Shown here: positions 898-17,342 of the stretch, in pieces
Layout: each line of letters starts with the position of its first letter
Position numbering within the stretch: the first letter of the stretch is position 1
Assembly (NCBI GenBank): GCA_016926735.1
Contig: JAFGOA010000017.1
Span: forward strand, 1 to 17,342
From: Promethearchaeota archaeon
GTDB lineage: Archaea; Asgardarchaeota; Lokiarchaeia; Sigyniarchaeales; SOKP01
Reading direction: 5' to 3'
DNA: 17,342 nt
Notes under the pieces: generated by a model
Databases searched by the model: none
What the model saw: only the letters and a program-made list of their open reading frames with translations
Told to the model about the DNA's origin: nothing
Program-made: the position numbers and the translations under genes

Positions 898-930
898 TTT
901 TTTCACATAGATATTTTTAAAATTATTTAT

Positions 931-1029
931 TTGATCAATTGTTAGATTTAATATCAGTTATGTTCATCAATTTAGAATTGATAATAGAAATCTTTATTTT
1001 CATGTAAGATTAGCTTAATTCTTGATCAA
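931..1029. promoter_or_regulatory. Two perfect TTGATCAA palindromes (931-938, 1022-1029) upstream of the GH9 gene; possible operator sites
   Basis: Seen directly; 1-mismatch copies at 963-970 (TTCATCAA) and 1199-1206 (TTGATCAT). Function is inference only. Confidence 0.25.
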
Positions 1030-1368
1030 ATGAATACAATACTTATAATATTCTAAGTGTCTTTTAAAAGAATATGGAGAAACTTTGAACTAATTATTAA
1101 TTTTTATTTATTTATTTTTTTTTCTCAAATATCTGATAGAATGATAATATTTATGATGGTATTATTAGATTAGGTTATCAAAATTATTCATTGCTATTTT
1201 GATCATGTTAAAAATTATTAATAATGGGAGATAAATGAAAAAATCAACTCTAATCAAAGAAATATATTTTTATATATAAATAAGAATACGAAAAATGAAA
1301 GTAATATGATAAGAATTAAAATACAAAAAATCTAAATATATTATAATTCATTTAAAGATGATTTATAA

Positions 1369-4300
1369 ATGCAAAATTTAAAAATAAATAAGATTACAGC
1401 AAAAATATTAATGATATTACTATTTTTCAATATAATTTCAAATTTAATTTTCAATCCACTAACATCTTTTAAAAATTCTGAGAAGAATGATTCAGAAAAT
1501 ATTTTGAGAATATCAACAGATAGCGGAGGAGGATATATTATGAATACTGATGCATCATATTCATGGATTGAAATTAATGAAACTGGAATATTAATGGATG
1601 AAATATCAGATGTTGATTCTACTGAATTTGAAAGCATTGAATTTTCTACATGGAACTTTACTTTTTATAATATGATATATGACAGACTTGATGTTAGTAA
1701 TAGGGGATTTATGATTTTTCCTGAAGATGACGGTGGATCATTTCCAATAGATATTCCAAATATATACTCTATAAATGAGGATTGTGTTGCTTTATTTGCA
1801 GATTGGATTGTGACCTCAGAGAGTGAAGGAGGCGGAGGAATGATATACTATCAATTTTTATCTTCCCCAAACAGGTTAGTTATTGAATATAAAGATGTAT
1901 ATAATTCAGACGATCCTGATTATGAATATGTTGGCTCTTTTGAAGTAATTTTTCTTGAATCAGGAGATATAAAATTTCAATATAAAAATATAGAGAATAT
2001 ATCTGAGGACCCAGTAGTAGTAGGATTAGACCATGGAGATACATTAAACTATAATTTTTATGATGGATTTAATCAAAGTGTTTTACCTTTAAGTGAACTA
2101 GCAATTGAATTTACATTTAATGAAATGATTGATTTTAACTATTCATTGAATTTAGCCATTGATGAGGAATATTCTTGGATTGTTACCACGATAAATTATG
2201 ATAAATTGGATTTATTATTTGGTACTTCATGGGAAGCTAAATATGGATTATTTCCTGATCCTATACGTGGACAAAAAACAAATATTACTATAACTTCAAT
2301 TGAAGAAGATTCTTCTAATTGGAAAATTAATTATACTATCTGGGATTGGCATCATAGATTTACAGAATCTTTATTATATGTTGATATGGTAGAGAATTCA
2401 ATAATCTATAATAAAAATCCTTCAGACTATAATCAAATACATAATCTGACAAACTTATTCCCTCTATTTCTTCCAACACCTTCATATTGGTATCTTAAAG
2501 GTGCTAATTTATCTCAATATTATACGCAAATTTTAAGAAATATAGAGACATCTCACTCATCAAGCATCTATTCTTATGATTATGAAGATATGGTAGAATT
2601 ATCCCATAAGAGAGATATAACAATCAGTAGTCATGATTTAAGTATTTATGAAAATGCTTTATATACATCTGAGGGAATATTGCATTCTCTTCATTTTAGT
2701 TATGCAAACCATACTGATTATAAAAATGATGGTATTGTTTTTTCGATGGAAATGGTTACACCACAACATTTAATAAACCATACTTTAGAAGCGGATGTAA
2801 ATAATGAATTTTCATGGATTGTAACTGATATTAATAGCAATAAATTGGATTTTTTCTATGGAACAGATTGGGGGAAATCAATTGGATTAATATCGAATCC
2901 AATAAAAGGTCAAAAAAATAAAATAAATGTTACTGATATGAATATAAATTCTACTCATATGGAAATACGTTATGATCAATGGGATTGGATAAATAGATTG
3001 GAGTCATTTTCAGAATCATATCTTCAAAGTAATACTACAGGTTATAAACGAGATCCATTTAATTATAGTGAATCTTATAATATACCTTCTAATTTTCTAC
3101 CATTTGTACCGAATTACGCAGATATTTACTTTAAATATTGCTATATGGGCGTACAAATGGATTATCCTGATCCCCCCGATATTGATGATGATGACCAATC
3201 AATTACAATATATCAATCCGAATGGAAAAATATAACAGGGCATATTATTACCATTACTAAAAGGTCAGAGTATAATTTATCTGGAGTTTTAGATGAATTC
3301 TCAATAAAATGGAGAAATGATACCTCTCATGAAAGTGAAATAATATTTCAGATGGAAAATGCTCTTCCTCTACTTAGCAGCGTTTCTCTGGGATTTGAAG
3401 TTAATGATGAATTTTCTTGGATCGTCTCTGAAGTTAATAATACTTTTTTGGAATCCTATTTAGGGTCAGATTGGGAAAATATATTTGGTTTACCTCTAAA
3501 TCCTACACAATATAGCAAAACCAAAATAAATATAACAAATATTGCTGAAAATGAAACATATTGGAAGGTAAATTATTCAATGTGGGATTGGATAGATCGT
3601 TCAAATGATTTTGATCCATTACCTGAAAACATTGATTCCTTGAATTTTAGAACTGAACCATTTAATTACACAAATCCACACAATTTTACTAACATTATAC
3701 CTTTATTTCTTCCTAATCCTACTGATTTATACGTTCAATATGGAAATCTTGATGATAGTCTATATTCATTTGGATCTGGGGGTATGAGTGGTCTTATATT
3801 TAACACTATTTTTGGCATGTATCTTAATCCATATGATAATAGCAAAACTCTATCATTCAGACTTGACAAAGATGATGATAGAATCTATGGATATGCTGAA
3901 TATAATTCACTTGGTTTTTTAAAACATTTTTATATAGAGAGTAGAGATCCATATACAGATGACCCAATTACAGTTTTTAGCATAATAAACTATTTTGAAG
4001 GACCAAAACCCTCATATGTTAAAATAAATGAAAGTGAGATTTATGAATATAATATTTATCTAAATGAGGAAATCGCACCAGAATATTTTATCGGTACAAA
4101 TTTTCCTGAAAAAATAATAATTTCAATTGAGTATATTGGTGGGAATGATCCATTAAATAACGAAACTACTATAATATATCATCTATCTTTTTTATGGAAT
4201 GGATCTATTGTATATTTTGGTTTAATATATAACATTCTTTGTCAAGATCTTACAGATAATAATCAGTTCTACAATATCAATAATTATTTTGTAAATCCAG

Positions 4301-4902
4301 ATACAGATTGGAGTCAAATTGAGTCAGTAATTGAACTTATACTTGATAATGAGGATTTTACTTTTGAAGCATTCAGTAATGGTTACCAATTTTCTATTAG
4401 TAGTGGAGATTATAATATTACAAGTGATTACCGATATACTTCTCAAGGAATATTGAATATAGCAACTATATCTATTAATGATCAAATACTTATGACATAT
4501 CAATTGAATACTTCTGAAATAATTGATGAAATTGATCCTGAATGGGTTATTACGCCTTCAGATCAAAAAATTAAATTTGGAGATAATTTTAATTATATTG
4601 TAGAGGCATTTGATGCATCTGGAATTCATCATTATGATATTAATGATACTGAGAATTTCAATATAGGTCAGAATACAGGTTTAATTACAAATACTATATC
4701 TCTTGCTGTTGGTGAATACTGGTTAGAAATATATGCATTTGATACTTATGGTAATAATTGTACTGCAATAATTAAAATAACTATAGAAGAGAAACCAAAA
4801 TCTAATATTCCTGGATATGAAATTATGACAATATTTACAGTAACATCAATTTCTTTGGTAATCCTCCTCTTAGTTAAAAAAAAAAAGGTAATTCCTAAGT
4901 AA
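1369..4902 (+). CDS. Large cell-surface glycoprotein: signal peptide, NIDO-like beta domain, three ~200-aa repeats, Ig/cadherin-like domain, Loki-CTERM-type anchor
   Basis: N-terminal hydrophobic segment; many N-x-S/T sequons; repeated E(Y/F)SWIV...G(T/S)xW...WDW...P; C-terminal NIPGYEIMTIFTVTSISLVILLLVKKKK. Domain names are by resemblance. Confidence 0.85.
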   Translation: MQNLKINKITAKILMILLFFNIISNLIFNPLTSFKNSEKNDSENILRISTDSGGGYIMNTDASYSWIEINETGILMDEISDVDSTEFESIEFSTWNFTFYNMIYDRLDVSNRGFMIFPEDDGGSFPIDIPNIYSINEDCVALFADWIVTSESEGGGGMIYYQFLSSPNRLVIEYKDVYNSDDPDYEYVGSFEVIFLESGDIKFQYKNIENISEDPVVVGLDHGDTLNYNFYDGFNQSVLPLSELAIEFTFNEMIDFNYSLNLAIDEEYSWIVTTINYDKLDLLFGTSWEAKYGLFPDPIRGQKTNITITSIEEDSSNWKINYTIWDWHHRFTESLLYVDMVENSIIYNKNPSDYNQIHNLTNLFPLFLPTPSYWYLKGANLSQYYTQILRNIETSHSSSIYSYDYEDMVELSHKRDITISSHDLSIYENALYTSEGILHSLHFSYANHTDYKNDGIVFSMEMVTPQHLINHTLEADVNNEFSWIVTDINSNKLDFFYGTDWGKSIGLISNPIKGQKNKINVTDMNINSTHMEIRYDQWDWINRLESFSESYLQSNTTGYKRDPFNYSESYNIPSNFLPFVPNYADIYFKYCYMGVQMDYPDPPDIDDDDQSITIYQSEWKNITGHIITITKRSEYNLSGVLDEFSIKWRNDTSHESEIIFQMENALPLLSSVSLGFEVNDEFSWIVSEVNNTFLESYLGSDWENIFGLPLNPTQYSKTKINITNIAENETYWKVNYSMWDWIDRSNDFDPLPENIDSLNFRTEPFNYTNPHNFTNIIPLFLPNPTDLYVQYGNLDDSLYSFGSGGMSGLIFNTIFGMYLNPYDNSKTLSFRLDKDDDRIYGYAEYNSLGFLKHFYIESRDPYTDDPITVFSIINYFEGPKPSYVKINESEIYEYNIYLNEEIAPEYFIGTNFPEKIIISIEYIGGNDPLNNETTIIYHLSFLWNGSIVYFGLIYNILCQDLTDNNQFYNINNYFVNPDTDWSQIESVIELILDNEDFTFEAFSNGYQFSISSGDYNITSDYRYTSQGILNIATISINDQILMTYQLNTSEIIDEIDPEWVITPSDQKIKFGDNFNYIVEAFDASGIHHYDINDTENFNIGQNTGLITNTISLAVGEYWLEIYAFDTYGNNCTAIIKITIEEKPKSNIPGYEIMTIFTVTSISLVILLLVKKKKVIPK
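2143..4010 (+). repeat. Three tandem intragenic protein repeats (~201-213 aa)
   Basis: The Trp of SWIV falls at 2176, 2815 and 3418 (spacings 639 and 603 nt). Shared motifs: SWIV, FGTSW/YGTDW/LGSDW, P..GQK, WDW, P.(D/N)Y, FPLFLP/LPFVP/IPLFLP. Boundaries approximate. Confidence 0.9.
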
Positions 4903-4904
4903 TA

Positions 4905-4914
4905 TTTTTTTTTT
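4905..4914 (+). terminator. Oligo-T tract, likely archaeal intrinsic terminator
   Basis: T10 immediately after the 4902 stop, between convergent genes. Confidence 0.5.
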
Positions 4915-4995
4915 CTCGTATACTATAATAAAAATATCTTTTTCTTTTTTTATATTGATTCATCGATAATAGAAATTATATAAATAGTCACATAA

Positions 4996-5958
4996 TTAAT
5001 TATAACTATCCGATTTTAGTGTCGTATTTGATCTAAAATGTAAAAAATCTCTAATTACGTACCCATCATTTTCAAATTTCAGAGCATGTAGTCCACAATT
5101 GCTTCCAATAAGATTCTCCTCCAACTCTCCAATACTAAGGATTGTCTCAAATCCAATATCTTTAAGAGAATCAATTATTTGTTTAACATATTTTAAATCA
5201 TTCAGATTAACAAAAGATTGAAATTGATTCTCAATAACAGATCGAGTTGGATTTAATGGTGTAAGTTTTATAATAAATTTCTTTGGATTAAATAATTCAC
5301 TAATAACATCTTTATCGATAGGATTATATTTATTAGCGGCGAAATTAAGTGTTATTTTTCTATCCTTTCCTATTATAAAATCTTCTCCATATTCAGCAAT
5401 TTCTTTTAAAGACCATTTAGGATAAGGAATAATTTGATCTCTTAATTTCTCATCAGTCGTATGTAATGAAAATTGCATCTGAAATTGATATTTTGAATAT
5501 ATAATATGTTTTATTTCCATTAATTCGGCCATAAATTCTTTTGCTTTCCTTGGAGCAATGGTGGAGATACAAGGTATTAAACCTGGTGCATCATATCTAT
5601 ATGGAAGTTGTTTCAATACCTCTAACACATTTGGATTTAATGTTGGTTCTCCCATTCTAGCAAATTGTATTTTAAATTTAGGAATAGAAATTTTTTTCTC
5701 AGGATATCTGTTTAAAACCATATAATCAATTTGATTAAATATATCATGTGTAGAAAGATTTCCCTTAAAATATTTTCCTGCATCGCAGATTGAGCATTTT
5801 ACAGGACATCCATACATTGTAGAAATAATTAAAACCCATTTTTCTTCTCTTGAATGTGGTGGTTGAATAGATTCTATAAATTCAAGATATTTATTTTCAA
5901 TTTCTCCAATATAAAGAATAGCTAATTCTTCATAACCATATTTTTTAACAATTTCCAT
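4996..5958 (-). CDS. RlmN/Cfr-like (class A) radical SAM protein
   Basis: ISTMYGCPVKCSICDAG (CxxxCxxC), ARMGEP (MGMGEP-like), FSLH and C-terminal GSNCGL (AACGQL-like). True RlmN activity is not assumed. Confidence 0.8.
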   Translation of the reverse strand: MEIVKKYGYEELAILYIGEIENKYLEFIESIQPPHSREEKWVLIISTMYGCPVKCSICDAGKYFKGNLSTHDIFNQIDYMVLNRYPEKKISIPKFKIQFARMGEPTLNPNVLEVLKQLPYRYDAPGLIPCISTIAPRKAKEFMAELMEIKHIIYSKYQFQMQFSLHTTDEKLRDQIIPYPKWSLKEIAEYGEDFIIGKDRKITLNFAANKYNPIDKDVISELFNPKKFIIKLTPLNPTRSVIENQFQSFVNLNDLKYVKQIIDSLKDIGFETILSIGELEENLIGSNCGLHALKFENDGYVIRDFLHFRSNTTLKSDSYN

Positions 5959-6211
5959 AATATACTCAATTTAAATAATAATTTCAAAAATATCAATAAT
6001 ATACTAATTAATTTTTACAATGGTATTTATTTTATTGAACCAGAAATTCTAATTACATATAAAATATCTCTATTTATAGAGATTTTAAATATTAAATTTA
6101 ATTAAATAAAGATTTATTCCTTCATAAGTCTAATTGCATAAAAATATAATTCTTAAAAAAAAGAAAGTTATTAATTAGAAAAATAATCGTGTTAACTTTA
6201 AATCTAATAAT

Positions 6212-6502
6212 TTATTTTCTCATTTTTGTCCATTTATTAAGATAGAAAAACCCTATAACAATTAGAGTAATTAGAACAATTCCTATAATTCCAGCTAAAT
6301 AATTATTTTCTATCCATGACAAGATAGGGGTCCAAATATCCCCTTCACCCTCATGACCAACATCTTCTAATACTCTTTCTAATCCATCAGGATTTTCTGA
6401 TAAAAATCCAAGACTATACCCTATACTCAACATTAAAATTAAAACTATAATAGTAGAAAAAAGAGTTATCAATGGCCATTTATATTCCTTTAATTTTTCC
6501 AT
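6212..6502 (-). CDS. PDGLE-domain membrane protein (NikN/CbiN-like accessory subunit of a Ni/Co ECF transporter)
   Basis: SENPDGLERV motif between two TM helices; starts 3 nt after cbiM. Confidence 0.9.
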   Translation of the reverse strand: MEKLKEYKWPLITLFSTIIVLILMLSIGYSLGFLSENPDGLERVLEDVGHEGEGDIWTPILSWIENNYLAGIIGIVLITLIVIGFFYLNKWTKMRK

Positions 6503-6505
6503 TCT

Positions 6506-7177
6506 TTAGTTCACTCCGAAAAATTTTTGAGTTGCTATAAAATTGGGTTTGGTTTTTAGTATATAATAAATTATTAACGCTGAGATCACTGCTTCTCCTA
6601 TTCCAATTATTGAATGCCAAATTACCATTGCCGGTACAACAAAATCATATGTACCAATTCCTGAAAGTACTAATTGTGTTCCGCATATCGCCGAAGCAAG
6701 TAATACAGATAAATATGCTCCTATTCCAGTAGATAAAGTTATATTAAGTGTATTATTCATTTTAGTTTTATTTAATATTTTTTTTAATCCAACAACAATG
6801 AAAAAACCAATAATTCCGCAAATAATCCCCATATTGAAGGTATTTGCGCTGAGTGCTAAAATTCCTCCATCTCCAAATGTTGTTTGAACTAGTAAAACCA
6901 AAAATAACACAAATAAAGATGCCCAAGGACCTAATATAACAGCCACCAACGTTCCTCCAATTAAGTGACCCGAAGTTCCTCCAGGAATAGGATAATTAAC
7001 AAATTGAAATGCAAAAATGACTGCTGCTAATACACCAATATAAGGAATATATTTTTCAGAATCTTCCGATTTAAAAATCGTTCCCATTTTAAAATATGCA
7101 ATAATAAACATGATAATGCATATTATCCAAAAAATTCCTAAAATAGTAGGGCTCAATAATCCATCACTTATGTGCAT
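6506..7177 (-). CDS. cbiM: Ni/Co ECF transporter S component CbiM/NikM
   Basis: MHISDGLL N-terminus and GGTSGHLIGG motif. Start moved from the track's TTG at 7186 to ATG at 7177, because this family binds metal via the free Met1 amine and His2. Confidence 0.93.
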   Translation of the reverse strand: MHISDGLLSPTILGIFWIICIIMFIIAYFKMGTIFKSEDSEKYIPYIGVLAAVIFAFQFVNYPIPGGTSGHLIGGTLVAVILGPWASLFVLFLVLLVQTTFGDGGILALSANTFNMGIICGIIGFFIVVGLKKILNKTKMNNTLNITLSTGIGAYLSVLLASAICGTQLVLSGIGTYDFVVPAMVIWHSIIGIGEAVISALIIYYILKTKPNFIATQKFFGVN

Positions 7178-7226
7178 AAAGATCAACTATACCAAATTTT
7201 AATCATTCATCGTATATTTTTATTAA

Positions 7227-7291
7227 TATGAATTATTTAAAATTTAGTATGATATTCTATAAGAATATTACTATTTTATAAAAAAGTATGA
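7227..7291. promoter_or_regulatory. Candidate NikR-type operator array in the divergent cbiM/cbiQ intergenic region
   Basis: GTATGA at 7247-7252 and 7286-7291 (E. coli NikR half-site); TATGA-N16-TATGA (7227/7248) and TATTA-N16-TATGA (7266/7287); inverted repeat ATATTCT-ata-AGAATAT at 7252-7268. The AT-rich background lowers confidence. Confidence 0.4.
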
Positions 7292-7450
7292 ATACCTCTT
7301 ATCTTTAATATAGTTATATATAGATTGTTTTTTTTTTTTAAAATTAGGAAATTCAGATATTAAATAAATAAAAGTAAATCTTATATTGGGCTATTAATTC
7401 CAAATCAAGAAATATTATTATATTTAACCAAATTATAAATAAAGATATAA

Positions 7451-8254
7451 ATGGAATCATTCCTACCATTTAGACATGAAAATGAGTACACTTATTTATC
7501 AGAAATTCATCCTACAGTTCGATTCATTATTCCCTTTATTTTAATTATTCCGTTTTTAATAATTAAAGATATATATCTTACAATTACAATTCTTTTTATT
7601 AATTTATTGCTTTTATTTATATTCCAGTTGAAATTAAAAAGAATTCTCTTAAGAATCAAGAAAATTTTTATTTTAATTATAATATTAGTTATTTTTTTAC
7701 CCCTATACTTAGGGAAAACCATCCTTTTTCAATTAAATATTGGTGTAATTATAAATATTTATAAAGAAGGGTTTGATTTGGCAATTCTTCTATTTTTACG
7801 AATTTTTTCATCTATTTTTATATTTATGACTTTTTTTTCTTCTTTAACCTATTCGGAATTTATAGAAGCAATAACTAAACTACGGGTTCCCTTGATTTTT
7901 ACTGGTTCTCTAATTATATTATTGCATTATATTCCGATATTAGCATATTCAAATAGACGAATTTTAAGTGCCCAAGAATTAAGAGGAAAAAAAATTACAT
8001 CTTATTGGTTAAAATTAAAAACTCATGCATTTATTTTGGGAAAAACAATTCTGATAAATATGGATCGTAGTGAACAATTATATGAAAGTCTTAAAATGAG
8101 AGGATTTTCTGGAAAAATAACATTTATTCCCAAACGTATTAAATTTCTGGATATTTTAATTCTGTTTGGATTTTTGTTTTTGATTTTTCTTTTGGTGTAT
8201 TTTATTAATTTAAAAGAATTATATTTAGGAGTTGCAGATATATTAAATCTATAG
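7451..8254 (+). CDS. cbiQ: ECF transporter transmembrane T component CbiQ/NikQ
   Basis: IHP.VR N-terminus, multiple TM helices, AQELRG and SLKMRGF coupling-helix motifs. Confidence 0.92.
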   Translation: MESFLPFRHENEYTYLSEIHPTVRFIIPFILIIPFLIIKDIYLTITILFINLLLLFIFQLKLKRILLRIKKIFILIIILVIFLPLYLGKTILFQLNIGVIINIYKEGFDLAILLFLRIFSSIFIFMTFFSSLTYSEFIEAITKLRVPLIFTGSLIILLHYIPILAYSNRRILSAQELRGKKITSYWLKLKTHAFILGKTILINMDRSEQLYESLKMRGFSGKITFIPKRIKFLDILILFGFLFLIFLLVYFINLKELYLGVADILNL

Positions 8255-9000
8255 AGGTAAAAGAATTAGAATTTTCATATAATACAGACTTTTCTATAAA
8301 TAATATCTCATTTAATATTGAAAATAACTCTATTTTTGCACTTTTAGGTAATAATGGTTCCGGAAAAACAACACTACTGAGGTTATTAGTTGGGCTTTTA
8401 AAACCAAGTTCAGGTGAAATAAGAATATTTGGTGAGACATTAACAAGAGATAAAACAAAACTATGGAACATAAGAAAAAAAATTGGATTTTTATTTCAGA
8501 ATCCAGATGATCAACTCTTTGCTCCAACAATTCAAGAAGATATTGGTTTTGGTGCTCGTAATCTTAAATTAGATGAAGATGAAGTTATGAAAAGGGTCGA
8601 TTGGGCGCTTCAATCTGTTAATTTATTAGAATATAGGAATTATTCACCATTCAACCTATCTTGGGGACAAAAGAAAAGAGCAGCTTTAGCAGGATTATTA
8701 GTTATGAAACCAAAATTATTGATTTTAGATGAACCTTTTGCAAATCTCGATTTTAAATCCATTTATAAGCATTTAGAGATAATCGAAAAGCTAAGAAAGG
8801 AGGAGAAAATGACAATATTATTTACATCTCATAATTTATTCTTTATAGAACATTGGGCGGATGAGATATTGGTATTAGATAAAGGCAATGCAATTTATAG
8901 TGGTAACTGCACAGAAGGATTAAATAATTTAAAAGTTCGAGATTTAATTGGTTCATTCGATGAAATCCGTGATCTCATACTTAAAAATAAATCGAAATAA
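8242..9000 (+). CDS. cbiO: ECF transporter ATPase CbiO/NikO (full length; probable non-canonical ATT start)
   Basis: The frame of the 8587 ORF is open back to TAA at 8206-8208 and encodes IKSIEVKELEFSY...GNNGSGKTT (Walker A)...FQNPDDQ (Q-loop), then LSWGQKKR and LLILDEP. No ATG/GTG/TTG lies upstream of Walker A. AGGAG at 8227-8231 precedes ATT at 8242. The start position is uncertain. Confidence 0.9.
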   Translation: MKSIEVKELEFSYNTDFSINNISFNIENNSIFALLGNNGSGKTTLLRLLVGLLKPSSGEIRIFGETLTRDKTKLWNIRKKIGFLFQNPDDQLFAPTIQEDIGFGARNLKLDEDEVMKRVDWALQSVNLLEYRNYSPFNLSWGQKKRAALAGLLVMKPKLLILDEPFANLDFKSIYKHLEIIEKLRKEEKMTILFTSHNLFFIEHWADEILVLDKGNAIYSGNCTEGLNNLKVRDLIGSFDEIRDLILKNKSK

Positions 9001-9073
9001 AATACTTTATAATTTCTTATTTTTATTAGTATTTCAATAAGATATATAGTAAATAAAAAAGTATTCACAGAAA

Positions 9074-9535
9074 ATGCATTTAGTTCTTACTTATTTTGAC
9101 AGGTTAAGGGGACCAAGTATATTTTTATCATATCCAGAAATAGAAATTGAAGAAGATATAATTAATAAACTTATAAAATTCTTTGATTTAGACATTAATG
9201 AGACTTTTTTTGAAATTGTGCTCATCAATAAAAATAAGAAAATTATAAATCTTTATATTGAAATTCCTTCAGAATGGGCACGTGGAAATAAAGAAATGGT
9301 AATGCTCTCTTTAATAATGAAAAAAACATATCCAAGCGAACTACTTTACGCATTTATTGTTGAGACTTCCCATAAAATCCTTAAAACAAACAATGTTTAT
9401 AAGGCATTTTATAAAGATGATGATCATTTTAATGATAATATTGAAGTATTTTTGGCTCATGAACAAATTCGCTTAATTCTTTTTGATAGCCTTAATGCCT
9501 TAATTTCTAGATTAGAATCAAAAAAAAAAGTATAA
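9074..9535 (+). CDS. Asgard longin/uDENN-like domain protein
   Basis: LVLTYFDRLRGP..F..YP N-terminal pattern and IPSEWARG.KEMVMLSLI resemble the FD...GP and ARG motifs of NPRL2/folliculin/DENN-type longin domains. Confidence 0.6.
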   Translation: MHLVLTYFDRLRGPSIFLSYPEIEIEEDIINKLIKFFDLDINETFFEIVLINKNKKIINLYIEIPSEWARGNKEMVMLSLIMKKTYPSELLYAFIVETSHKILKTNNVYKAFYKDDDHFNDNIEVFLAHEQIRLILFDSLNALISRLESKKKV

Positions 9536-9618
9536 TCAAAAAATTATTGTAGAAAATATTTCTTTAGTTTAAATTAGATAATGATAGTTTTGAAAAAAGT
9601 TTATTATTCTTTATTGAT

Positions 9619-9628
9619 ATATTTAAAT
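9619..9628 (+). promoter_or_regulatory. Probable TATA box for the H/ACA RNA
   Basis: ATATTTAAAT; TTTAAA at 9622-9627 ends ~25 nt upstream of the first paired base (9652). Confidence 0.5.
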
Positions 9629-9651
9629 TGGGAAAATAATGATGGAATAAC

Positions 9652-9712
9652 TGCGTTATCGAGGGCATATATGACCCTATATGATTATATGTGCAAAGAC
9701 GCGCAAACATCT
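9652..9712 (+). ncRNA. H/ACA hairpin 1; predicted target 23S U2496 (E. coli numbering)
   Basis: Lower stem 9652-57/9698-9703; upper stem GCAUAUA 9665-71/UAUAUGU 9686-92; K-loop U9672.U9685, G9673.A9684, A9674.G9683; pocket AUCGAGG/GCAAA; 14 nt to ACA. Confidence 0.92.
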
Positions 9713-9736
9713 GGAGTTTTTATAGTCAAAAATTTA

Positions 9737-9821
9737 GCCCTGGTAAAAATGGGCTCTTGGTTGAGCATAAGGAGGAATCCAAGCGATGATACTAGGGCAG
9801 TAACCCAGGCAGGGTACATGA
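9737..9821 (+). ncRNA. H/ACA hairpin 2; tentative target 23S U2586 (E. coli numbering)
   Basis: Lower stem GCCCUG 9737-42/CAGGGU 9810-15 directly before ACA; stem UCUUGGU 9755-61/ACUAGGG 9791-97; K-turn UGA 9762-64 / GAU bulge 9785-87 / GAU 9788-90 with a GC/GC C-stem; apical GGA-GGAA-UCC (GNRA tetraloop). Confidence 0.85.
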
Positions 9822-9849
9822 TTATGCCCAATAAAGCATAGAAATTAAA

Positions 9850-9929
9850 GCCTAGCACGAGAGAACATATTTGATTTTAAGGTATCTCCTTGGAATGATA
9901 ATTTTGTGTTAGTGTTTTAGGCAACAGTC
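9850..9929 (+). ncRNA. H/ACA hairpin 3; target not identified
   Basis: Lower stem GCCUAG 9850-55/UUAGGC 9917-22; upper stem AACAUA 9864-69/UGUGUU 9905-10; K-turn-like UUUGA 9870-74 / AAU-GAUAA 9894-9901; apical UUAAGG/CCUUGG; ACA 13-14 nt from the upper stem base. Confidence 0.8.
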
Positions 9930-10000
9930 TATGCCCCTATCTTTATATGATTTTGATATTTTTAAAGATTTAAATCTTGTAATTCATAAAAAAAGAGAGA

Positions 10001-10465
10001 TTAAAGAAAACTTATTGAATCAGAATTAAATAATTCTTTTAATTCTTTATTCACAACATTCTCACTTACATCTAAATAGCTTTCTAATACTTTTTCTAAT
10101 TTTGGGGCCCATTTTTTCATCACTGCTCTGATAAATCCAATATTAACATTTTTCTCAGTAGCAATGCATAAAACACCTCTACCGATCTTCATAGAAAAGA
10201 TCATTCCTTTATTATACTCTGTTATTTGGAGATCAATATTTCCATAACCTAATATTACACCTTGCTCTTCTCCAGCCATAAAGACTGCTCCACCAATTGC
10301 ACCGATTTTTTCAACGGAAGTATTGTCATCGGATAATTTAAATTTGGATTGACTTAACAAGGTAATACCAGTTTCATCAATTATGATAGTATATTTAACA
10401 CCAGCAGTACTATCTATTATTGATTTTAAAATCTTTTTTAGAACAATTTCGTCTTCATAGCTCAT
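10001..10465 (-). CDS. Roadblock/LC7 (MglB/LAMTOR-like) domain protein
   Basis: IIIDETGI..S, EKIGAIGGAVF..GE, ITEYNKG.IF, LCIAT...VNIG.IR follows the roadblock pattern. Confidence 0.85.
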   Translation of the reverse strand: MSYEDEIVLKKILKSIIDSTAGVKYTIIIDETGITLLSQSKFKLSDDNTSVEKIGAIGGAVFMAGEEQGVILGYGNIDLQITEYNKGMIFSMKIGRGVLCIATEKNVNIGFIRAVMKKWAPKLEKVLESYLDVSENVVNKELKELFNSDSISFL

Positions 10466-10535
10466 TTTTATCCATCAATCCAATTATACTTTAAATATAA
10501 TATATATTTTTCTCTATAATGATTTATATAAAAGA

Positions 10536-10550
10536 TATATAAATTTCTTT
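10536..10550 (-). promoter_or_regulatory. BRE-TATA promoter for the roadblock gene
   Basis: The minus strand reads AAAGAAA-TTTATATA, ~70 nt upstream of the ATG at 10465. Confidence 0.5.
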
Positions 10551-10690
10551 AGAAAAATCTAAAATTTATACCCTTTACCTGTATAAATAAAATAAAAATT
10601 AGTATATAAATAATTAAGTATCAAATCTTTTGTTCTTATAATTATAACGAAAATCTATGATTAAGATATAAGGTTTTACTAATTTTAGGT

Positions 10691-11038
10691 TTAGAATAAT
10701 ATTTGTCTTTTAATTATGGATTTAAGTGTTTTATATCCATTAATATTTTGATTTGGTCTTTTTAAAAATATTACCAATTTAATAGAATCATCCTCATTTA
10801 ACGTTCTAACAATTTTAATGTAATTTTCATTATCTACAAATTTTCGTTGTTTTGCAATTGCTTCTAATGCGAGTTCTTGTTCTTTAAATGGAAATTTATC
10901 TGTTATTTTAGAAACAATTGGAAATCCGTGATAATCAGCAATTACACCAGCAGCAAAATTAGGGAAATTTTGACAAATATTATTAAGAAAATAATCTACT
11001 TGATCCTGACTAACTAAATTTTCACTAATAAAAATCAC
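10691..11038 (-). CDS. Divergent roadblock/profilin-fold-like small protein
   Basis: Helix followed by FAAGVIADYHGFPIVS (roadblock-like beta-hairpin) and ELALEAI helix; GTG start; shorter than its neighbour. Confidence 0.55.
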   Translation of the reverse strand: MIFISENLVSQDQVDYFLNNICQNFPNFAAGVIADYHGFPIVSKITDKFPFKEQELALEAIAKQRKFVDNENYIKIVRTLNEDDSIKLVIFLKRPNQNINGYKTLKSIIKRQILF

Positions 11039-11196
11039 TTTCAGTTATAATTAAGCAATAATTATTTGAAAAAAAAAGATTATTTTAAAGATGTATAACA
11101 TCAAGATGATATAGTGATAAATCGGTATTGGAAAAATAATTCAAATAGATAAAGTAAAATAAAAAGAAGTAAAGAAAAATGAGCTTTTTTTGTGAA

Positions 11197-12180
11197 TTAT
11201 TTTTCAGAATGTTTATTTTTTAGACTCACAATATCGATATTTAAATTCTCAATAAGTTCACTAAAACGATTTCTAACAGTAACCTCGGTTACTTGTGAAA
11301 CTTGAGCAATTCTTTTTTGAGTTCTTTTTTCTCTTGTAATTAAAGTACTTGCATATATAGCAGCGGCACACAATCCTGTTGGACCTCTTCCGGATGTTAA
11401 ACCTCTTTCAGAAGCCATCTTTATTATCATTTTTGCAATCTTATGGCACTCTGCTGAGAGATCTAATTCAGAGATAAAACGTGTTAAAAAGTCAGAAGGT
11501 TTTGTAGGATTTAAACTTAGATCAAGCTCATTTGAGATAAATCTAAATGATCTTGCTATTTCTTTCTTATCTACACGTGCTATATCTGCTATTTCAAAAA
11601 GAGTTCTTGGTATTTTGTACATACGGCAAGCAGCATAAAGACTAGCAGCAGCTACTCCTTCAATACTTCTTCCTCGAATAAGATGTTTTTCTACAGCGTT
11701 TCTATAGATTTTTGCGGAGCATTCCCTTAGATTTTTTTGTAGCTCTAAGCTTGATGCCATTCTATCTAATTCACTAAGAGCAAATGTGAGATTTCTTTCT
11801 GTAGCATCAGAAATCCTAATTCTACTTTGCCATTTTCTTAATCGATGGATTTGACCTCTTAATTTTACAGGTATCTCTTTACCATAGCTATCTCTATTTT
11901 TCCAATCGATCATTGTACTAAGACCTTTATCATGAATCATGTATGTCATAGGAGCTCCAGTTCGTGTTCTTTTCTTTTTTTGGTCAGAATCAAAAGCTCG
12001 CCACTCTGGACCTCTATCAATAGAATTTTCTGAATGTACAAGTCCGCAATTTTCACATATAATCAAACCTCGATTATGGTCAAAAAATACATTTTTTCCA
12101 CATTCATTACAAATATTTTTTTCTGTAGTAATTTTATCAGAGATGAATTTTTCTTCTTTCCAACTTGAAATATTAAACAC
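11197..12180 (-). CDS. tfb: Transcription initiation factor IIB (TFB)
   Basis: Zn ribbon CNEC...CENCG, B-reader GPEWRAF, HDKGLST, two cyclin repeats (RGRSIE, SGRGP), VTEVTVRNR. Confidence 0.98.
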   Translation of the reverse strand: MFNISSWKEEKFISDKITTEKNICNECGKNVFFDHNRGLIICENCGLVHSENSIDRGPEWRAFDSDQKKKRTRTGAPMTYMIHDKGLSTMIDWKNRDSYGKEIPVKLRGQIHRLRKWQSRIRISDATERNLTFALSELDRMASSLELQKNLRECSAKIYRNAVEKHLIRGRSIEGVAAASLYAACRMYKIPRTLFEIADIARVDKKEIARSFRFISNELDLSLNPTKPSDFLTRFISELDLSAECHKIAKMIIKMASERGLTSGRGPTGLCAAAIYASTLITREKRTQKRIAQVSQVTEVTVRNRFSELIENLNIDIVSLKNKHSEK

Positions 12181-12220
12181 CTAATAAGGTTTTGATAGAT
12201 TATATTTTTGTGGGTAAATT

Positions 12221-12469
12221 TTATTTAAATTTAGCATAAAAGTTATGGTTAGGATTTATTTCTTGATTTGGTTTAGTTTTTACAGAAATAAAGGGTGTAT
12301 CAATGGGTCCAAAAATATCTTTTACAAAACCAATATTATTATATTCTTCATTATATATTGGTTTTTTTAAGACTTTTTCAAGATTTTTATTCCATTTTGT
12401 AGCTCTAAAAATTTGATGTTTTTTAGCAGAAATACCTATATAATGTAAATCCAATTTAACCCAATTCAA
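12221..12469 (-). CDS. gar1: H/ACA RNP subunit Gar1/Naf1
   Basis: IGFVKDIFGPIDTPFISVK motif; gar1-tfb adjacency is common in archaea; TTG start. Confidence 0.9.
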   Translation of the reverse strand: MNWVKLDLHYIGISAKKHQIFRATKWNKNLEKVLKKPIYNEEYNNIGFVKDIFGPIDTPFISVKTKPNQEINPNHNFYAKFK

Positions 12470-12552
12470 TAAAAATCCCTCTTTAATGTTATTTTGTGAA
12501 ATATATTATAACATTAAGTATAATTTCTTAAACTAATTTAATTTATTGTCTA

Positions 12553-12560
12553 TATATAAA
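12553..12560 (-). promoter_or_regulatory. TATA box upstream of gar1-tfb
   Basis: The minus strand reads TTTATATA, ~85 nt upstream of the gar1 start. Confidence 0.4.
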
Positions 12561-12634
12561 TCTTAAGGTTTTATCTCTTCTCTCAGTTTACCTAAAAAGG
12601 AAAGGTTTTTTTAACCGTATTTTCTAAAAGTAAT

Positions 12635-13720
12635 TTAGTTTTGGATTTTTTGAATATCATATTTTTTTTTACAGATACATTCTGATTCAGATTTGTTTAA
12701 TTCTTCAAGATCTTGATTTAAAATAAAATTTTTTAGTAACTTGTTCATATTTTCATTACAATCTTTTGAAGAACAATTATGAATTCCTCTTTTGCTTCCT
12801 GATCCAGAAGGATCACACAATATTCGAACTTTTTTAAAATCTTCTTTTTTTAATGCTTGTCTAAAAGATTCAAATAAAGAATAAAACCATGGAGGTCTAT
12901 ATTTTTTTTGTTTCCATAAAGATTCTACAAGAGACCCTTTTTGAATATTACATGGATTTATCGAAATTGTATTAATATTACTTTCTGTAAGTTTTTTAAT
13001 TGATTTTATGCAATCATCTATACTTCCTTGTTCATTTAGAAAAGGAGGTTTAAAAAGAAGATAAACTTTTATTCCTATATCCATCTCATGAATTAATTTT
13101 ACTGCTTTCATAAACTTATCAAAAGTGAGGTTTTTATTAATATATTTATTTCTAATATAATCATCCACACTCTCAAGTCCTATACCTAACTCTATATACT
13201 TATTTTCAAGATAATTCAGCATTTGTTTTAATAAATTCTTATTTATGAATTCTACTCTCGTTTCAAAAGTAATTTCTTTAATATTAGGGATTTCAGAAAT
13301 TCTTTTATATATATGTATTCTGGTTTCCTCACTGATTTCTTTACTGTCAAAGAAGCTTCCAGAATTAAAGATTTTTAATGCGTAATTATTTGTATCACTA
13401 TTTATTTCATCGATTTTTTGGTCTAAAGCATAATCAAATTGATTAATAATTTGTTGAGGATCCACATAGTCGATATTAGCATCTTCAACATACCCACACA
13501 TCGAACAACCTGAATTTTCTAGAGCCCAACAACATCCCCTAGTCCTAAGAATAATAGTGATTTCTTTTCCAATCTCATCTAAGAGTCTTTCTTCTTTAAT
13601 CCAAAAACTTACAGGTTTATTTAACTGATCTATAGTATATTTTTTTTTATAATTAAGAGATTTCTTTCTTAATTTGGCAATTTCCTCACTTAAGCAATTC
13701 TTATTATTTCTTGATTTCAT
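12635..13720 (-). CDS. raSEA: Archaeosine biosynthesis radical SAM protein RaSEA
   Basis: IILRTRGCCWA...GCSMCGY (widely spaced Cys motif), KIFNSGSFFD, YLLFKPPFL, SINPCNIQKGS, YRPPW, GSKRGIHNC. Overlaps arcS. ATG at 13720 preferred to TTG at 13729. Confidence 0.92.
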   Translation of the reverse strand: MKSRNNKNCLSEEIAKLRKKSLNYKKKYTIDQLNKPVSFWIKEERLLDEIGKEITIILRTRGCCWALENSGCSMCGYVEDANIDYVDPQQIINQFDYALDQKIDEINSDTNNYALKIFNSGSFFDSKEISEETRIHIYKRISEIPNIKEITFETRVEFINKNLLKQMLNYLENKYIELGIGLESVDDYIRNKYINKNLTFDKFMKAVKLIHEMDIGIKVYLLFKPPFLNEQGSIDDCIKSIKKLTESNINTISINPCNIQKGSLVESLWKQKKYRPPWFYSLFESFRQALKKEDFKKVRILCDPSGSGSKRGIHNCSSKDCNENMNKLLKNFILNQDLEELNKSESECICKKKYDIQKIQN

Positions 13721-15788
13721 ATAAATCAACTACTCTCCCAAAATTAGTATTTTTAACATATTGAGAACTCACAATCATATTTCCCACTGCTATAATATTT
13801 TCTTTACTTTTATCAAAAATGCACACATTATCATTAGGATGTATATTTGGTTTGATTTCTAATATTCCTGGTTTAAATAAAGTATTTCCATTTATTTTAA
13901 TGCCATCAAATATTAAATAGTTTGAGAAGTTCTTCGCAAAAGCAATTTTTTTAGCTCCTTTTATAGTAAGTTCTATTTTCCCAGAGGAGATTTCGAATTT
14001 TCCGATAATATCTTTTTTATCCGAATGAAAAATCTCAATCTTTGTTTTTAACCTATTTTTTCTGTAGTATACCTCTTTATTAATCAAGAGATTACCAATA
14101 CCACGTCCAAATTGATAATCAATAATTTTTCGAAATTTTCTTATCCACATTTTCGAAATAGACCTTTCTTTTTCTACACCTTCATCTATAATATATAAAG
14201 TTTTAAATGAATGTATTAGGTTATTTAGATGATCTAACGATTCATTTGAAGTGGTATTTTCTTTAATATCTGTGTAGATAAATTTGTTTTCTAATGCTTT
14301 TTCAGCATTTTGAGCAATATCAACATATTTCCCCTCTAAATGACATATAATAGGAATATTTTTATCATATTTATTAATTAATCTTATCAGCATTTCGGAT
14401 GTTATTTTAATCTCATCCTCATCCCAATCACCCGTAACTGGAATATCATATGATTTAGCAGGGTAAATATCTTCTAATTGTCTAGGAATTATCCCTAAAG
14501 GAGATGTTAGAATAAATTCTTGAAATTCAGGGTATTCTGGATGATTTCTTAAGATTTTTAGAAATTTTTGATGTGATTTTGATTCTGAATAAGGTTTTTT
14601 TGCTGAACAAGGAAATAAAATAATCAATCTTGTTGATGGTTCAGGTGTAAAATTTTGAATAATATTATTTCTAAAATAATTAAAATCAGGACGATAATAA
14701 GATGAGGGTCCTAAACAATTAACTATTTTATTTTTTTGAATTATCTGAGAGAAATTTTCTGCAAAATTATAATAATCTTTATCATAAATCCTTAATAAGG
14801 ATATGAAATTTGGATTATTCATTGAAGATTTCTCAACAAAATTACGAAAATCTTCCGTATGTAGAAACTGGATAGTTTTATTCATATAATTTTTAATAGT
14901 TGAAAGATTGTGGTAGCATAATAAATCTATTTTTTCTGGAGATTTAGTATCTCCTATTAACTCTACCAACTTTCCTTTACAAGCTAAACAACTACAAGGA
15001 AGGTTTTTTATTTTGGTAAGGGGTAACAGAGTTTCTATAGAATCATATAAATTATGTGATGATATCACCAAGGAGTAAGAGCTATCGATCAAATCAAATC
15101 CAAAATAAATAAGGATAGGTAAATAATATGAGATTATTGTCCCTGAAATCATAAATACTAGATTACTATCAAGATTTTCTCTTAAATTTTTAATAACATC
15201 AATAATTCTTCTATAATAGGTGAGATTATCGAATAAATCAATGAAATTTAAAATTTTAATGTTTTTATTCTTTTTTATAAAAGATAAGTATAATTTTATC
15301 ATGTCAAAATCCTTAAATAATTTAATAGAAAGACCAAAATCAATTTTAGGATTATCTTTTAGTATTATTTCAACATTTTCTAAATAATTTTTAATCTCAT
15401 ATTCAGAGAAATTATTGTTTATAGATACTGTTGGAATGTTGAATGGAATTATTGGAATAATATTACTTTTAAAAAATAACTCATTTTTTTCATTCAATAT
15501 TTCATGAAATTTTGTTAACAATCCATAATAAGTATAGAGGAAAATTGATTCTCCAAACATCTTGTTTAAAATATCCTCTTTTAGATATTTTTCTTCTGAA
15601 ATCATAAAGATATCATGATATCCAAAGGAATCAATGAATTCTGCATTATTGGATAAAAATTGTTTAAAAGGAATGATAATATTTGGAGTATTAACAGATT
15701 TTTTTGTAGCATTATGAATCTTAATTTTACCAATTCTTGATAAATTTATCCTAGTTTTTATTAAATCAAAAAAAAAAACCATTTTCAA
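13704..15788 (-). CDS. arcS: Archaeosine synthase ArcS (TgtA2): degenerate TGT barrel, catalytic domain, PUA domain
   Basis: SRIGKI...TPN TGT-like start, LPCSCLAC...HN Zn site, PCSAKKPYSESKSH motif, TSPLGIIPRQLE..YP...YDIPVTGDW, DYQFG and C-terminal PUA. Start is TTG 15788 or ATG 15782. Confidence 0.93.
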   Translation of the reverse strand: MKMVFFFDLIKTRINLSRIGKIKIHNATKKSVNTPNIIIPFKQFLSNNAEFIDSFGYHDIFMISEEKYLKEDILNKMFGESIFLYTYYGLLTKFHEILNEKNELFFKSNIIPIIPFNIPTVSINNNFSEYEIKNYLENVEIILKDNPKIDFGLSIKLFKDFDMIKLYLSFIKKNKNIKILNFIDLFDNLTYYRRIIDVIKNLRENLDSNLVFMISGTIISYYLPILIYFGFDLIDSSYSLVISSHNLYDSIETLLPLTKIKNLPCSCLACKGKLVELIGDTKSPEKIDLLCYHNLSTIKNYMNKTIQFLHTEDFRNFVEKSSMNNPNFISLLRIYDKDYYNFAENFSQIIQKNKIVNCLGPSSYYRPDFNYFRNNIIQNFTPEPSTRLIILFPCSAKKPYSESKSHQKFLKILRNHPEYPEFQEFILTSPLGIIPRQLEDIYPAKSYDIPVTGDWDEDEIKITSEMLIRLINKYDKNIPIICHLEGKYVDIAQNAEKALENKFIYTDIKENTTSNESLDHLNNLIHSFKTLYIIDEGVEKERSISKMWIRKFRKIIDYQFGRGIGNLLINKEVYYRKNRLKTKIEIFHSDKKDIIGKFEISSGKIELTIKGAKKIAFAKNFSNYLIFDGIKINGNTLFKPGILEIKPNIHPNDNVCIFDKSKENIIAVGNMIVSSQYVKNTNFGRVVDLYEIKK

Positions 15789-15878
15789 ACAACATTAAGT
15801 TTAGATTTATTTATATCCAAGAAAATCTTGTACTGTGAAAAAATAATATTTGATCCTTATAAAACTAATCTTTCAAAA

Positions 15879-17144: not shown

Positions 17145-17291
17145 ATTTCAACTTTAATTTTAACTTATTTATACTTTATATATATCAATCAGTTTTAAAA
17201 TATCGGGTATAATATTCACCGTTGCATAATATCAAAACAATTTGAAAATTTATTTTTTAAATGGCGAAATTTATACCTTATCCTTTTTAAA

Positions 17292-17342
17292 TTTTTTTTT
17301 TTTTTTTTTTTTATTAAATAAAAAAAAAATTAAAAAAAAAAA
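17292..17342. repeat. Low-complexity poly-T / poly-A tract at the window end
   Basis: About 21 T followed by A-runs; may be a terminator tract or a contig-end artefact. Confidence 0.6.

Follow-up and report, generated by a model that had tools for sequence, protein, structure and literature searches.

A non-coding RNA gene and its putative promoter

The window analysed here is a 17,342-nucleotide (nt) stretch of DNA from a Promethearchaeota archaeon (assembly GCA_016926735.1, contig JAFGOA010000017.1, positions 1 to 17,342). Between an upstream open reading frame (ORF) and a downstream gene lies a real, single-copy, non-coding RNA gene, on the plus strand at 9629-9935 (Table 1). On the conservation, structure, motifs, complementarity and gene context that we observed, it very probably encodes a ~305-nt, three-module archaeal box H/ACA guide RNA that has its own promoter, with a B recognition element (BRE) and a TATA box, is an orthologue of HgcG and finds its targets in the large-subunit (LSU) rRNA. 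A preliminary description, made from the letters of the window, had picked out the locus as a GC-enriched intergenic island, and composition confirms this: GC content is 0.37-0.44 over 9650-9899 and 0.13-0.25 in the flanks. Its labels for those neighbours held in part, as the downstream gene is of roadblock type by Pfam, whereas the longin label given to the upstream ORF found no Pfam support at E <= 0.01. The Asgard, Lokiarchaeial host that it supposed agrees with the relatives of the window's TFB (74-87% identity), which are labelled Promethearchaeota or Promethearchaeia, one of them a 'Loki' bin.

The RNA had originally been placed at 9652-9929, but it really starts ~23 nt earlier and runs to ~9935; its 3' end is uncertain, between 9935 and ~9965, and T-runs lie downstream. 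Likewise, an AT-rich run just before 9652 had been taken for the TATA box, but the conserved promoter is the BRE/TATA pair ~27 nt before 9629. In the consensus of 61 homologues, a promoter block (an A-run, then T-rich sequence) lies ~22-32 nt before the start of our covariance model, with equal spacing across all 61, and in a GC-rich genome (L074) it is the sole AT-rich block upstream. Transcription is predicted to start at about 9628-9631. Folding is better than that of shuffled versions for the plus strand (z = -3.0) and not clearly so for the minus strand (z = -1.6).

Both blastn and the covariance model find the gene conserved and single-copy. By blastn, full-length matches of 67-98% identity, one per genome, were present in 23 of the 24 other genomes of the same family; at the same sensitivity, the 16 genomes in the rest of the order gave only one 22-base match. 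The covariance model, R1, has 311 positions and 64 pairs; we built it on an alignment of 24 family sequences, from which the structure was read. R1 matches 119 of 131 genomes of the family, 6 of 14, 1 of 4 and 0 of 1 genomes in the sister families, and 34 of 123 genomes of other families in the phylum, nearly all across the full model.

The stems, on whose covariation the preliminary description had staked its proposal, covary both within and outside the family. Across 61 distinct homologues, 90.7% of cells are paired, compared with 34-44% when the partners are slid by 1-3 columns; compensatory changes, on both sides of the pair, occur in 58 of the 64 modelled pairs, and 0 of 500 shuffles reached any of the covariation measures. 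This alignment was fitted to R1 and so favours the model, though the gap to the slid controls is still large. Among the 17 out-of-family homologues, none of which entered model building, 84.2% of cells are paired (36-45% when slid) and both sides change in 62 of the 64 pairs. Pairing in the individual modelled helices lies at 70-100%, again with compensatory changes, and RNAalifold on the raw MAFFT alignment recovered a partial structure only.

Transcripts of this kind may be present in metatranscriptomes, where four runs, every one from a different study, gave a single short contig apiece (151-219 nt, 95-99% identity). These contigs stay within 9645-9863, and two of them (9645-9863 and 9682-9863) bridge the boundaries between hairpin units. 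None falls on the flanking genes, and none over 9300-9644 or 9864-10300, a gap in coverage that proves nothing.

Table 1. Features at and around the RNA gene, in positions of the window (H1, lower stem; H2, upper stem; C-stem, canonical stem; NC-stem, non-canonical stem; K, kink)
Feature	Position	Strand	Details
Whole RNA gene, ~305 nt	9629-9935	+	R1 match 9628-9939, 290.7 bits
Promoter	9592-9607	+	purine-rich BRE-like GAAAAAAG 9592-99, then TATA box UUUAUUAU 9600-07
P1 clamp	9629-9632 with 9827-9830	+	UGGG with CCCA; closes units 1 and 2
C/D-like K-turn, box-C-like strand	9633-9646	+	C-stem AAAAU 9633-37, bulge AAU 9638-40, GA 9641-42, NC-stem UGGA 9643-46
Unit 1, K-loop hairpin	9653-9709	+	H1 9653-57/9700-04; H2 9665-71/9686-92
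Unit 1 pocket	9658-64; 9693-99	+	5' guide AUCGAGG 9658-64; 3' guide GCAA(AGA) 9693-99
Unit 1 K-loop	9672-74; 9683-85	+	UGA 9672-74, GAU 9683-85
Unit 1 ACA	9707-09	+	2 nt after stem; 14 nt after first 3'-guide base
C/D-like K-turn, box-D-like strand	9710-9720	+	NC-stem UCUG 9710-13, GA 9714-15, C-stem GUUUU 9716-20
Helix J clamp	9722-9727 with 9820-9825	+	AUAGUC with GAUUAU; closes unit 2
Unit 2, K-turn hairpin	9738-9818	+	H1 9738-42/9810-14; H2 9755-61/9791-97 + U.U
Unit 2 strands	9748-54; 9798-9808	+	5' AAUGGGC 9748-54; 3' CAGU 9798-9801, then AACCCAG 9802-08
Unit 2 K-turn	9762-64; 9785-90	+	UGA 9762-64, GAU 9788-90, bulge 9785-87
Unit 2 C-stem	9771-80 (apical hairpin)	+	GC/GC
Unit 2 ACA	9816-18	+	1 nt after stem
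P3 clamp	9836-9842 with 9928-9934	+	GCAUAGA with UCUAUGC; closes unit 3
Unit 3, K-turn hairpin	9850-9926	+	H1 9850-54/9918-22; extension 9855-58/9912-15 across UU bulge
Unit 3 pocket	9859-65; 9908-11	+	5' guide GAGAGA(A) 9859-65; 3' guide GUUA 9908-11
Unit 3 H2	9866-71/9900-07	+	
Unit 3 K-turn	9872-74; 9894-99	+	UGA 9872-74, GAU 9897-99, bulge 9894-96, C-stem hairpin 9877-93
Unit 3 ACA	9924-26	+	1 nt after stem
86-aa ORF, not a gene	9581-9841	+	no Pfam family; no codon-level conservation
Upstream ORF	9074-9535		no Pfam match
Downstream ORF	10001-10465	-	MAPKK1_Int/Roadblock type (Pfam)
TFB gene	11197-12180	-	adjoins gar1
gar1	12221-12469	-	PF04410, 33.3 bits (cut-off 29.3); 2.3 kb from RNA gene

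Hairpin units and their candidate rRNA targets

All three units of the RNA have the form of archaeal H/ACA hairpins, in which an internal pocket separates the lower stem from the upper one. The preliminary description had located the units, their kink-loop (K-loop) or kink-turn (K-turn) motifs and their ACA triplets, and the letters, checked by coordinate, stand where it put them. In units 1 and 2 the upper stem comprises 7 base pairs (bp) and an additional U.U pair, and that of unit 3 has ~7 bp, interrupted by a single mismatch and a single bulge; the bottom pair of the unit-1 upper stem is unpaired in 14 of the 61 homologues. As the lower stem of unit 2 is not part of R1, we read it from the family alignment and judged its covariation by eye. 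A lower stem at 9736-43/9791-98, in the style of the preliminary description, is possible in the window but is not kept in the family.

Across the 61 homologues, the pocket of unit 1 reads UCGAGG in 56 and ACGAGG in 4, with GCAA in 53 and GCAU in 8; unit 2 has CAG in 56 and ACCC in ~53; and unit 3 has GAGAGA in 58, together with GUUAG (58) or GUUAA (3). An ANA box follows unit 1 in 61 of 61 (ACA 51, AUA 9, AAA 1), unit 2 in 59 (ACA 41, AUA 15, AAA 3) and unit 3 in 57 (ACA 50, AAA 6, AUA 1). The 3' side of the K-motif is UGA in 60 homologues for unit 1, AUGA in 58 for unit 2, and AUGA (53), GUGA (7) or UUGA (1) for unit 3; on the 5' side the NGA is mostly UGA, and the GA dinucleotides of the K-turns are near-invariant. 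Conservation of K-motifs and ACA boxes in relatives, on which the first proposal also depended, is therefore found, and the archaeal H/ACA architecture that it put forward is supported by the covarying stems, the conserved K-motifs and ANA boxes, an overlapping ORF that is not conserved and the genes of the four H/ACA proteins, all described here. One relative (G050) also holds an 81-nt, stand-alone copy of the unit-3 part only (R1 positions 220-301), on the minus strand at L055:920-1000 and ~500 nt from that genome's full-length RNA (51.2 bits, E 6.5e-12); it may be a duplicated single-hairpin guide.

If the RNA works as other archaeal H/ACA guides, then L7Ae would bind the K-loop or K-turn atop each hairpin and Cbf5-Nop10-Gar1 would bind each lower stem with its ACA. 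Each open pocket would pair with 23S rRNA on either side of a uridine, and Cbf5 would isomerise that uridine. Most likely, the RNA would in this way specify which uridines of the LSU rRNA become pseudouridine. We infer this protein binding and pseudouridylation, like the choice of pairing for unit 2 that is discussed below, from the sequences.

Targets were sought in the LSU and small-subunit (SSU) rRNA genes of relatives, with E. coli numbering assigned by alignment to the E. coli 23S gene. The best-supported candidate is that of unit 1, U2496, beside the peptidyl-transferase centre. Both unit-1 strands, AUCGAGG and GCAA, lie directly against the upper stem; their LSU partner is UUGC-UU-CCUCGAUG; UCGAGG and GCAA pair with UUGC-UU-CCUCGA(UG) over 4 + 6-9 bp. 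All 9 LSU rRNAs examined from the order share an identical copy of this site, its exact pattern occurs only once in LSU and SSU together, and 0 of 2000 shuffles yield a site. The same rRNA position is, we presume, the one that a yeast H/ACA small nucleolar RNA (snoRNA) serves as pseudouridine 2865 of 25S rRNA. Two-sided complementarity around an unpaired UN is present for unit 1 and in part for units 2 and 3. The distance from the ANA box to the 3' guide is 14 nt in unit 1, 14 or 18 nt in unit 2, depending on the pairing, and 16 nt in unit 3, or 14 nt without its two bulged U.

For unit 2, two pairings come into question. In one, AACCCAG, which starts 14 nt before the ACA, pairs with CUGGGUU just before U2586. 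In the other, the strands next to the upper stem are used: CAGU pairs with GCUG and AAUGGGC with GCCCAUU, on either side of U2554 in the A-loop. The A-loop site is unique and was yielded by 0 of 2000 shuffles. AACCC stands directly after the upper stem, 14 nt before the ACA, in the four out-of-family homologues counted, and the one genus without ACCC in its RNA (L021, L023) has C and not U at 2586 in its one available rRNA. In a sister-family homologue (L077), the A-loop pairing is canonical, at 15 nt. According to the part of the Pyrococcus study available to us (PMC2377435), the ANA box lies 14-15 nt from the target-facing end of the 3' guide and the upper stem has 5-6 bp. On these rules we incline to U2586 rather than U2554 as the likelier target of unit 2 in this family.

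Unit 3 is predicted to target U1915 in the loop of helix 69, and perhaps also serves U1917. Its GUUA pairs with UAAC just before U1915, and GAGAG (9859-63) pairs with CUCUC within that helix's 3' strand. All 9 LSUs of the order have the identical site, as do 2 of the 5 out-of-order genomes searched; it was not found in the other 3. A helix-69 guide is known from Haloferax volcanii, where sR-h45, a double-hairpin H/ACA RNA, directs pseudouridylation in this helix; like that of unit 3, its pocket leaves several loop bases unpaired, so that two nearby uridines could be served.

Other matches were rejected. The loop of helix 89, 28 nt from the unit-1 site, offers a 10-bp match of AUGGGCUCUU to unit 2, but the guide is constant where the rRNA letters vary, G011 and G006 show no compensating change, and the window's own genus has C in place of the supposed target U. 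In SSU rRNA, the 9 bp between CAGUACCCA and the region around position 314 fit no two-sided pocket. As targets of unit 3, LSU ~1018 scores within the range of shuffles, and LSU ~421-435 would unzip the upper stem and lies 22 nt from the ACA.

Some relatives' rRNAs have peculiarities of their own. In two LSUs (L032 of G007 and L043 of G011), a long AU-rich insertion, perhaps an intron of the rRNA or else an expansion segment, directly follows the conserved GUCGUGAG, past the 2586 region; in the LSUs of G003, G006 and G010, conserved sequence continues there. The LSU of G010 has U in the A-loop where most LSUs examined carry A at 2555, as does that of G030 from a sister family, and its helix-89 stem differs. 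Four of the five genomes in G010's genus have an RNA match.

We then come to the identity of the RNA. Rfam, which the preliminary description had proposed to search, returned no hit for the window at the gathering threshold, and below it a 12.4-bit hit to an H/ACA family, HgcG (RF00064). The bridge to this family is a distant homologue in G174, to which the window is joined through model R1 and whose R1-matched locus RF00064 hits over its full length (50.5 bits, E 9.5e-12); 7 of 12 distant R1-matched loci are hit at E <= 1. GCGAGG ends the 5' pocket of motif 1 in the HgcG consensus, and the window has UCGAGG; the consensus places AACCC before the lower stem and ACA of motif 2 and GUGUUA after the K-turn stem of motif 3, and the window has the same letters in the same places. 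Signal recognition particle RNA and RNase P RNA (RF01857, RF00373) were discarded as identities, since both lie elsewhere in the genome, on contigs C171 and C228.

The experimental counterpart is the Pab40 family. In the available portion of PMC2377435, Pab40, Pf7, Pho40 and Afu4 carry three H/ACA motifs; motif 1 of Pab40 targets position 2588 of P. abyssi 23S rRNA and motif 3 position 2016, in helix 69, and motif 2 of Afu4/Pf7 was assigned first to the A-loop (the equivalent of P. abyssi 2647) and later, by the authors' rules, to 2678. An offset of 92 between the P. abyssi and E. coli numberings would make 2588, 2678 and 2647 equal to 2496, 2586 and 2555, and it also reproduces the statement in that text that 2549, 2588 and 2603 are conserved in eukaryotes. 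With this inferred equivalence, the window RNA has the three ordered motifs together with the guides and targets of the family. Like Pab40, Pf7, Pho40 and Afu4, it is made up of three H/ACA motifs, and every one of them has its K-turn or K-loop and its ANA box. The kinds of target also agree with those given in that text, namely helix 89 and the peptidyl-transferase centre for motif 1 and helix 69 for motif 3, as does the choice between the A-loop and 2586 for motif 2. Compared with that family, the lower stems of units 1 and 2 have 5 bp, and, unlike the consensus structure of HgcG in Rfam, the window RNA has the clamp helices and the C/D-like K-turn around motif 1 that are described in the next section. 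On the targets and the bridging Rfam hit, we file the RNA as a divergent Asgard orthologue of Pab40/Pf7/Afu4 (HgcG), and thus as an archaeal H/ACA RNA of known kind.

Several observations weigh against this assignment or against the named targets. One genome of the family (G010, 100% complete) has no RNA match by blastn or R1. The RNA-library contigs carry neither strand nor ends, and relatives or DNA carry-over are a possible source. As no rRNA genes are present in the window's assembly (G000), the targets were read from relatives, and the exact-pattern tests of the sites against 2000 shuffles were defined after the sites had been seen. With mismatches allowed, the unit-1 site scores 10-12.5, inside the shuffled-rRNA range of 10-12; since this raw score is no better than the best of shuffled rRNA, the strength of the unit-1 target lies in geometry, invariance and homology. 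Its 3'-guide pairing is just 4 bp, and the 3'-guide arm was ranked the more important one in the Pyrococcus data, as far as the available text of PMC2377435 goes. The upper stems, at 7 bp, depart from the 5-6 bp given in that text, a rule that comes from one genus, Pyrococcus. For unit 2, the U2586 pairing leaves 4 nt between upper stem and guide and has almost no 5'-arm pairing, and the A-loop pairing lies 18 nt from the ACA, compared with the 14-15 nt at which Pyrococcus guides are active. For unit 3, there are 4 + 5 bp only, five rRNA loop bases are unpaired, and GUGU 9912-15 can alternatively pair with GCAC 9855-58. The score of the window against HgcG is far below the gathering score of 77, the 12.4-bit alignment places HgcG motif 1 on unit 2, and none of the Asgard homologues searched reaches the gathering score.

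An RNA built like an H/ACA guide might still not guide at these sites, and act instead as an rRNA-folding chaperone or on other targets, such as tRNA or small RNAs. A clean canonical target is found in unit 1 only, the pairings of units 2 and 3 being short or geometrically odd, and the conserved blocks exceed the parts for which rRNA pairing could be found. A role in folding would also suit the location of the four candidate sites, three of them around the peptidyl-transferase centre in domain V and one in helix 69. We nevertheless consider this improbable: the guide letters in common with the experimentally tested Pab40 family are those that pair with rRNA, a search of the whole G000 genome for bipartite targets of unit 3 found nothing above background, and the authors of the Pyrococcus study, in the part of it available, report no targets among tRNAs for their RNAs (PMC2377435).

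Reading the RNA as an HgcG-type guide fills a gap in annotation: at its gathering score the HgcG model passes the RNA over, and the 86-aa ORF lies open across it. It also makes the guiding of helix 69 and the peptidyl-transferase region by a three-motif RNA an old trait, common to Thermococcales, Archaeoglobus and many Asgard families. Eukaryotic H/ACA snoRNAs are two-hairpin, H-box/ACA RNAs without K-turns that serve one or two sites per RNA. As the guide family is old, the rRNA sites shared with eukaryotes are best read as inherited archaeal sites and not as a novelty of Asgard archaea and eukaryotes. The direct bearing on the origin of eukaryotic snoRNAs that had been claimed for this locus was thus overstated, since the RNA is orthologous to the published archaeal Pab40/Pf7/Afu4. 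We found no description of Asgard or Lokiarchaeal H/ACA RNAs in the open-licence literature and bioRxiv, and a 2021 review of H/ACA RNAs (PMC7991803) mentions neither Asgard nor Lokiarchaeota.

Clamp helices and a C/D-like kink-turn

Beyond the three units, R1 contains helices that join distant parts of the RNA (Table 1). P1 (helix 1) is 89.6% paired, with 5 of 5 pairs changed on both sides, and 82.3% paired out of the family. Helix J (helix 6) is 95.8% paired, with 6 of 6 pairs changed on both sides, and 86-98% paired out of the family. P3 (helix 9) is 96.0% paired, with 5 of 5 modelled pairs changed on both sides; in 5 of the 24 family sequences both of its strands are lost together. A fourth K-turn, which is C/D-like, encloses unit 1: 9633-37 pairs with 9716-20 as the C-stem and 9643-46 with 9710-13 as the NC-stem, GA 9641-42 faces GA 9714-15, and the box-D-like strand lies directly 3' of the unit-1 ACA. 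Its UGA is present in 61 of 61 homologues and its GA in 60; helices 2 and 3, which flank it, reach 95.4% and 84.8% pairing and carry compensatory changes, and the pair adjoining the K-turn GA (pair 10-131) is CG in 26, UG in 19, UA in 15 and unpaired in 0. Both the clamps and the C/D-like K-turn covary in and outside the family.

Together, P1, J, P3 and the C/D-like K-turn would clamp the modules into one compact RNA, an arrangement that, to our knowledge, has not been drawn for any published H/ACA RNA. It is conceivable, though we hold it to be rather doubtful, that this is an Asgard-wide elaboration that forms a rigid particle with four L7Ae, for coordinated modification on domains IV-V or as a folding chaperone. 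If so, the clamps and the fourth K-turn would unite three otherwise independent guide modules in a single rigid particle, which could dock on nascent 23S rRNA and modify helix 69, 2496 and 2586 or 2554. The clamped architecture is interesting but modest; structural and ribonucleoprotein-assembly studies in cultured Asgard archaea could start from the conserved clamps, the additional K-turn and the gar1 linkage (below).

The clamps also bear on whether the locus makes one RNA or three. Every unit has its own ANA box, and a unit-3-like copy stands alone in one relative (the L055 copy above), as might be expected of a cluster of three single-hairpin guides that mature separately. P1, however, joins the 5' end to sequence past unit 2, and J and P3 also covary, which is only sensible within one molecule. 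Homologues retain all three units in a single order, two of the RNA-library contigs span unit boundaries, and Pab40 is one RNA on a Northern blot (PMC2377435, in the part available). There is accordingly little to recommend the cluster. The preliminary description had spoken of a guide or guide cluster; the guide stands, and in place of a bare string of three hairpins we find one ~305-nt RNA with a 5' extension, clamps and a fourth K-turn.

The C/D-like K-turn could in turn make the RNA a dual-function composite that recruits Nop5-fibrillarin and guides 2'-O-methylation as well. In its favour are the conservation of the motif and the covariation of its flanking stems, and there is a precedent in Pab21, in which a C/D motif is joined to an H/ACA RNA (PMC2377435, in the text available). 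As in Pab21, an H/ACA hairpin and a C/D-type K-turn would share one transcript; in the window RNA, the K-turn strands flank hairpin 1 and abut its ACA. A box C/D small RNA, however, would need an antisense guide of 10-12 nt upstream of box D or D', and we found no conserved spacer of guide length. From the box-C-like element to hairpin 1 there are merely ~6 variable nt, and the stretch before the box-D-like GA is taken up by the ACA box and the paired NC-stem, so there is no room for one. The motif is also missing from some out-of-family homologues, including the most HgcG-like one. We regard the composite as very unlikely.

Finally, the preliminary description was right to call the 86-aa ORF a miscall, and a small-protein gene at 9581-9841 can be dismissed almost with certainty: although the frame is open in the window and in a 98%-identical relative, it has no Pfam match, its substitutions relative to same-genus relatives are even over codon positions 1, 2 and 3 (7/5/5 and 17/16/13), those same relatives have 2-4 stops in it, every plus-strand frame is interrupted by one stop or more in each of the 24 family sequences, and conservation runs 95 nt past the stop codon of the ORF and tracks base pairs, not codons.

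Neighbouring genes

The genome has genes for Cbf5, Nop10 and Gar1 and two of the L7Ae family. The gene for Gar1 is in the window itself, close to the RNA gene and next to that of TFB (Table 1). We searched for gar1 in 41 genomes, of which 28 carry both gar1 and the RNA. In 22 of these 28, including 4 of a sister family (and thus in two families), the two lie within 6 kb on the same contig; in the remaining 6 they are on different, mostly short contigs.

A second RNA-modification gene lies nearby. At 13704-15788 on the minus strand is a gene like that of the archaeosine-type tRNA-guanine transglycosylase (TGT, DUF5591, TGT_C2 and PUA domains), which adjoins a radical-SAM gene at 12635-13729. 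On the other side of the RNA gene, a 137-aa ORF at 8587-9000 (plus strand) covers no more than positions 84-137 of the ABC_tran profile, its C-terminal part, and lies downstream of CbiM (6506-7186, minus strand) and CbiQ (7451-8254, plus strand); the ATPase gene of this energy-coupling factor (ECF)/cobalt transporter cluster may be split or truncated. An ORF of 1177 aa at 1369-4902 (plus strand) has no Pfam family at E <= 0.001. In G174, a tRNA gene (L189:459-530, plus strand, 70.7 bits) lies ~60 nt downstream of the homologous H/ACA RNA.

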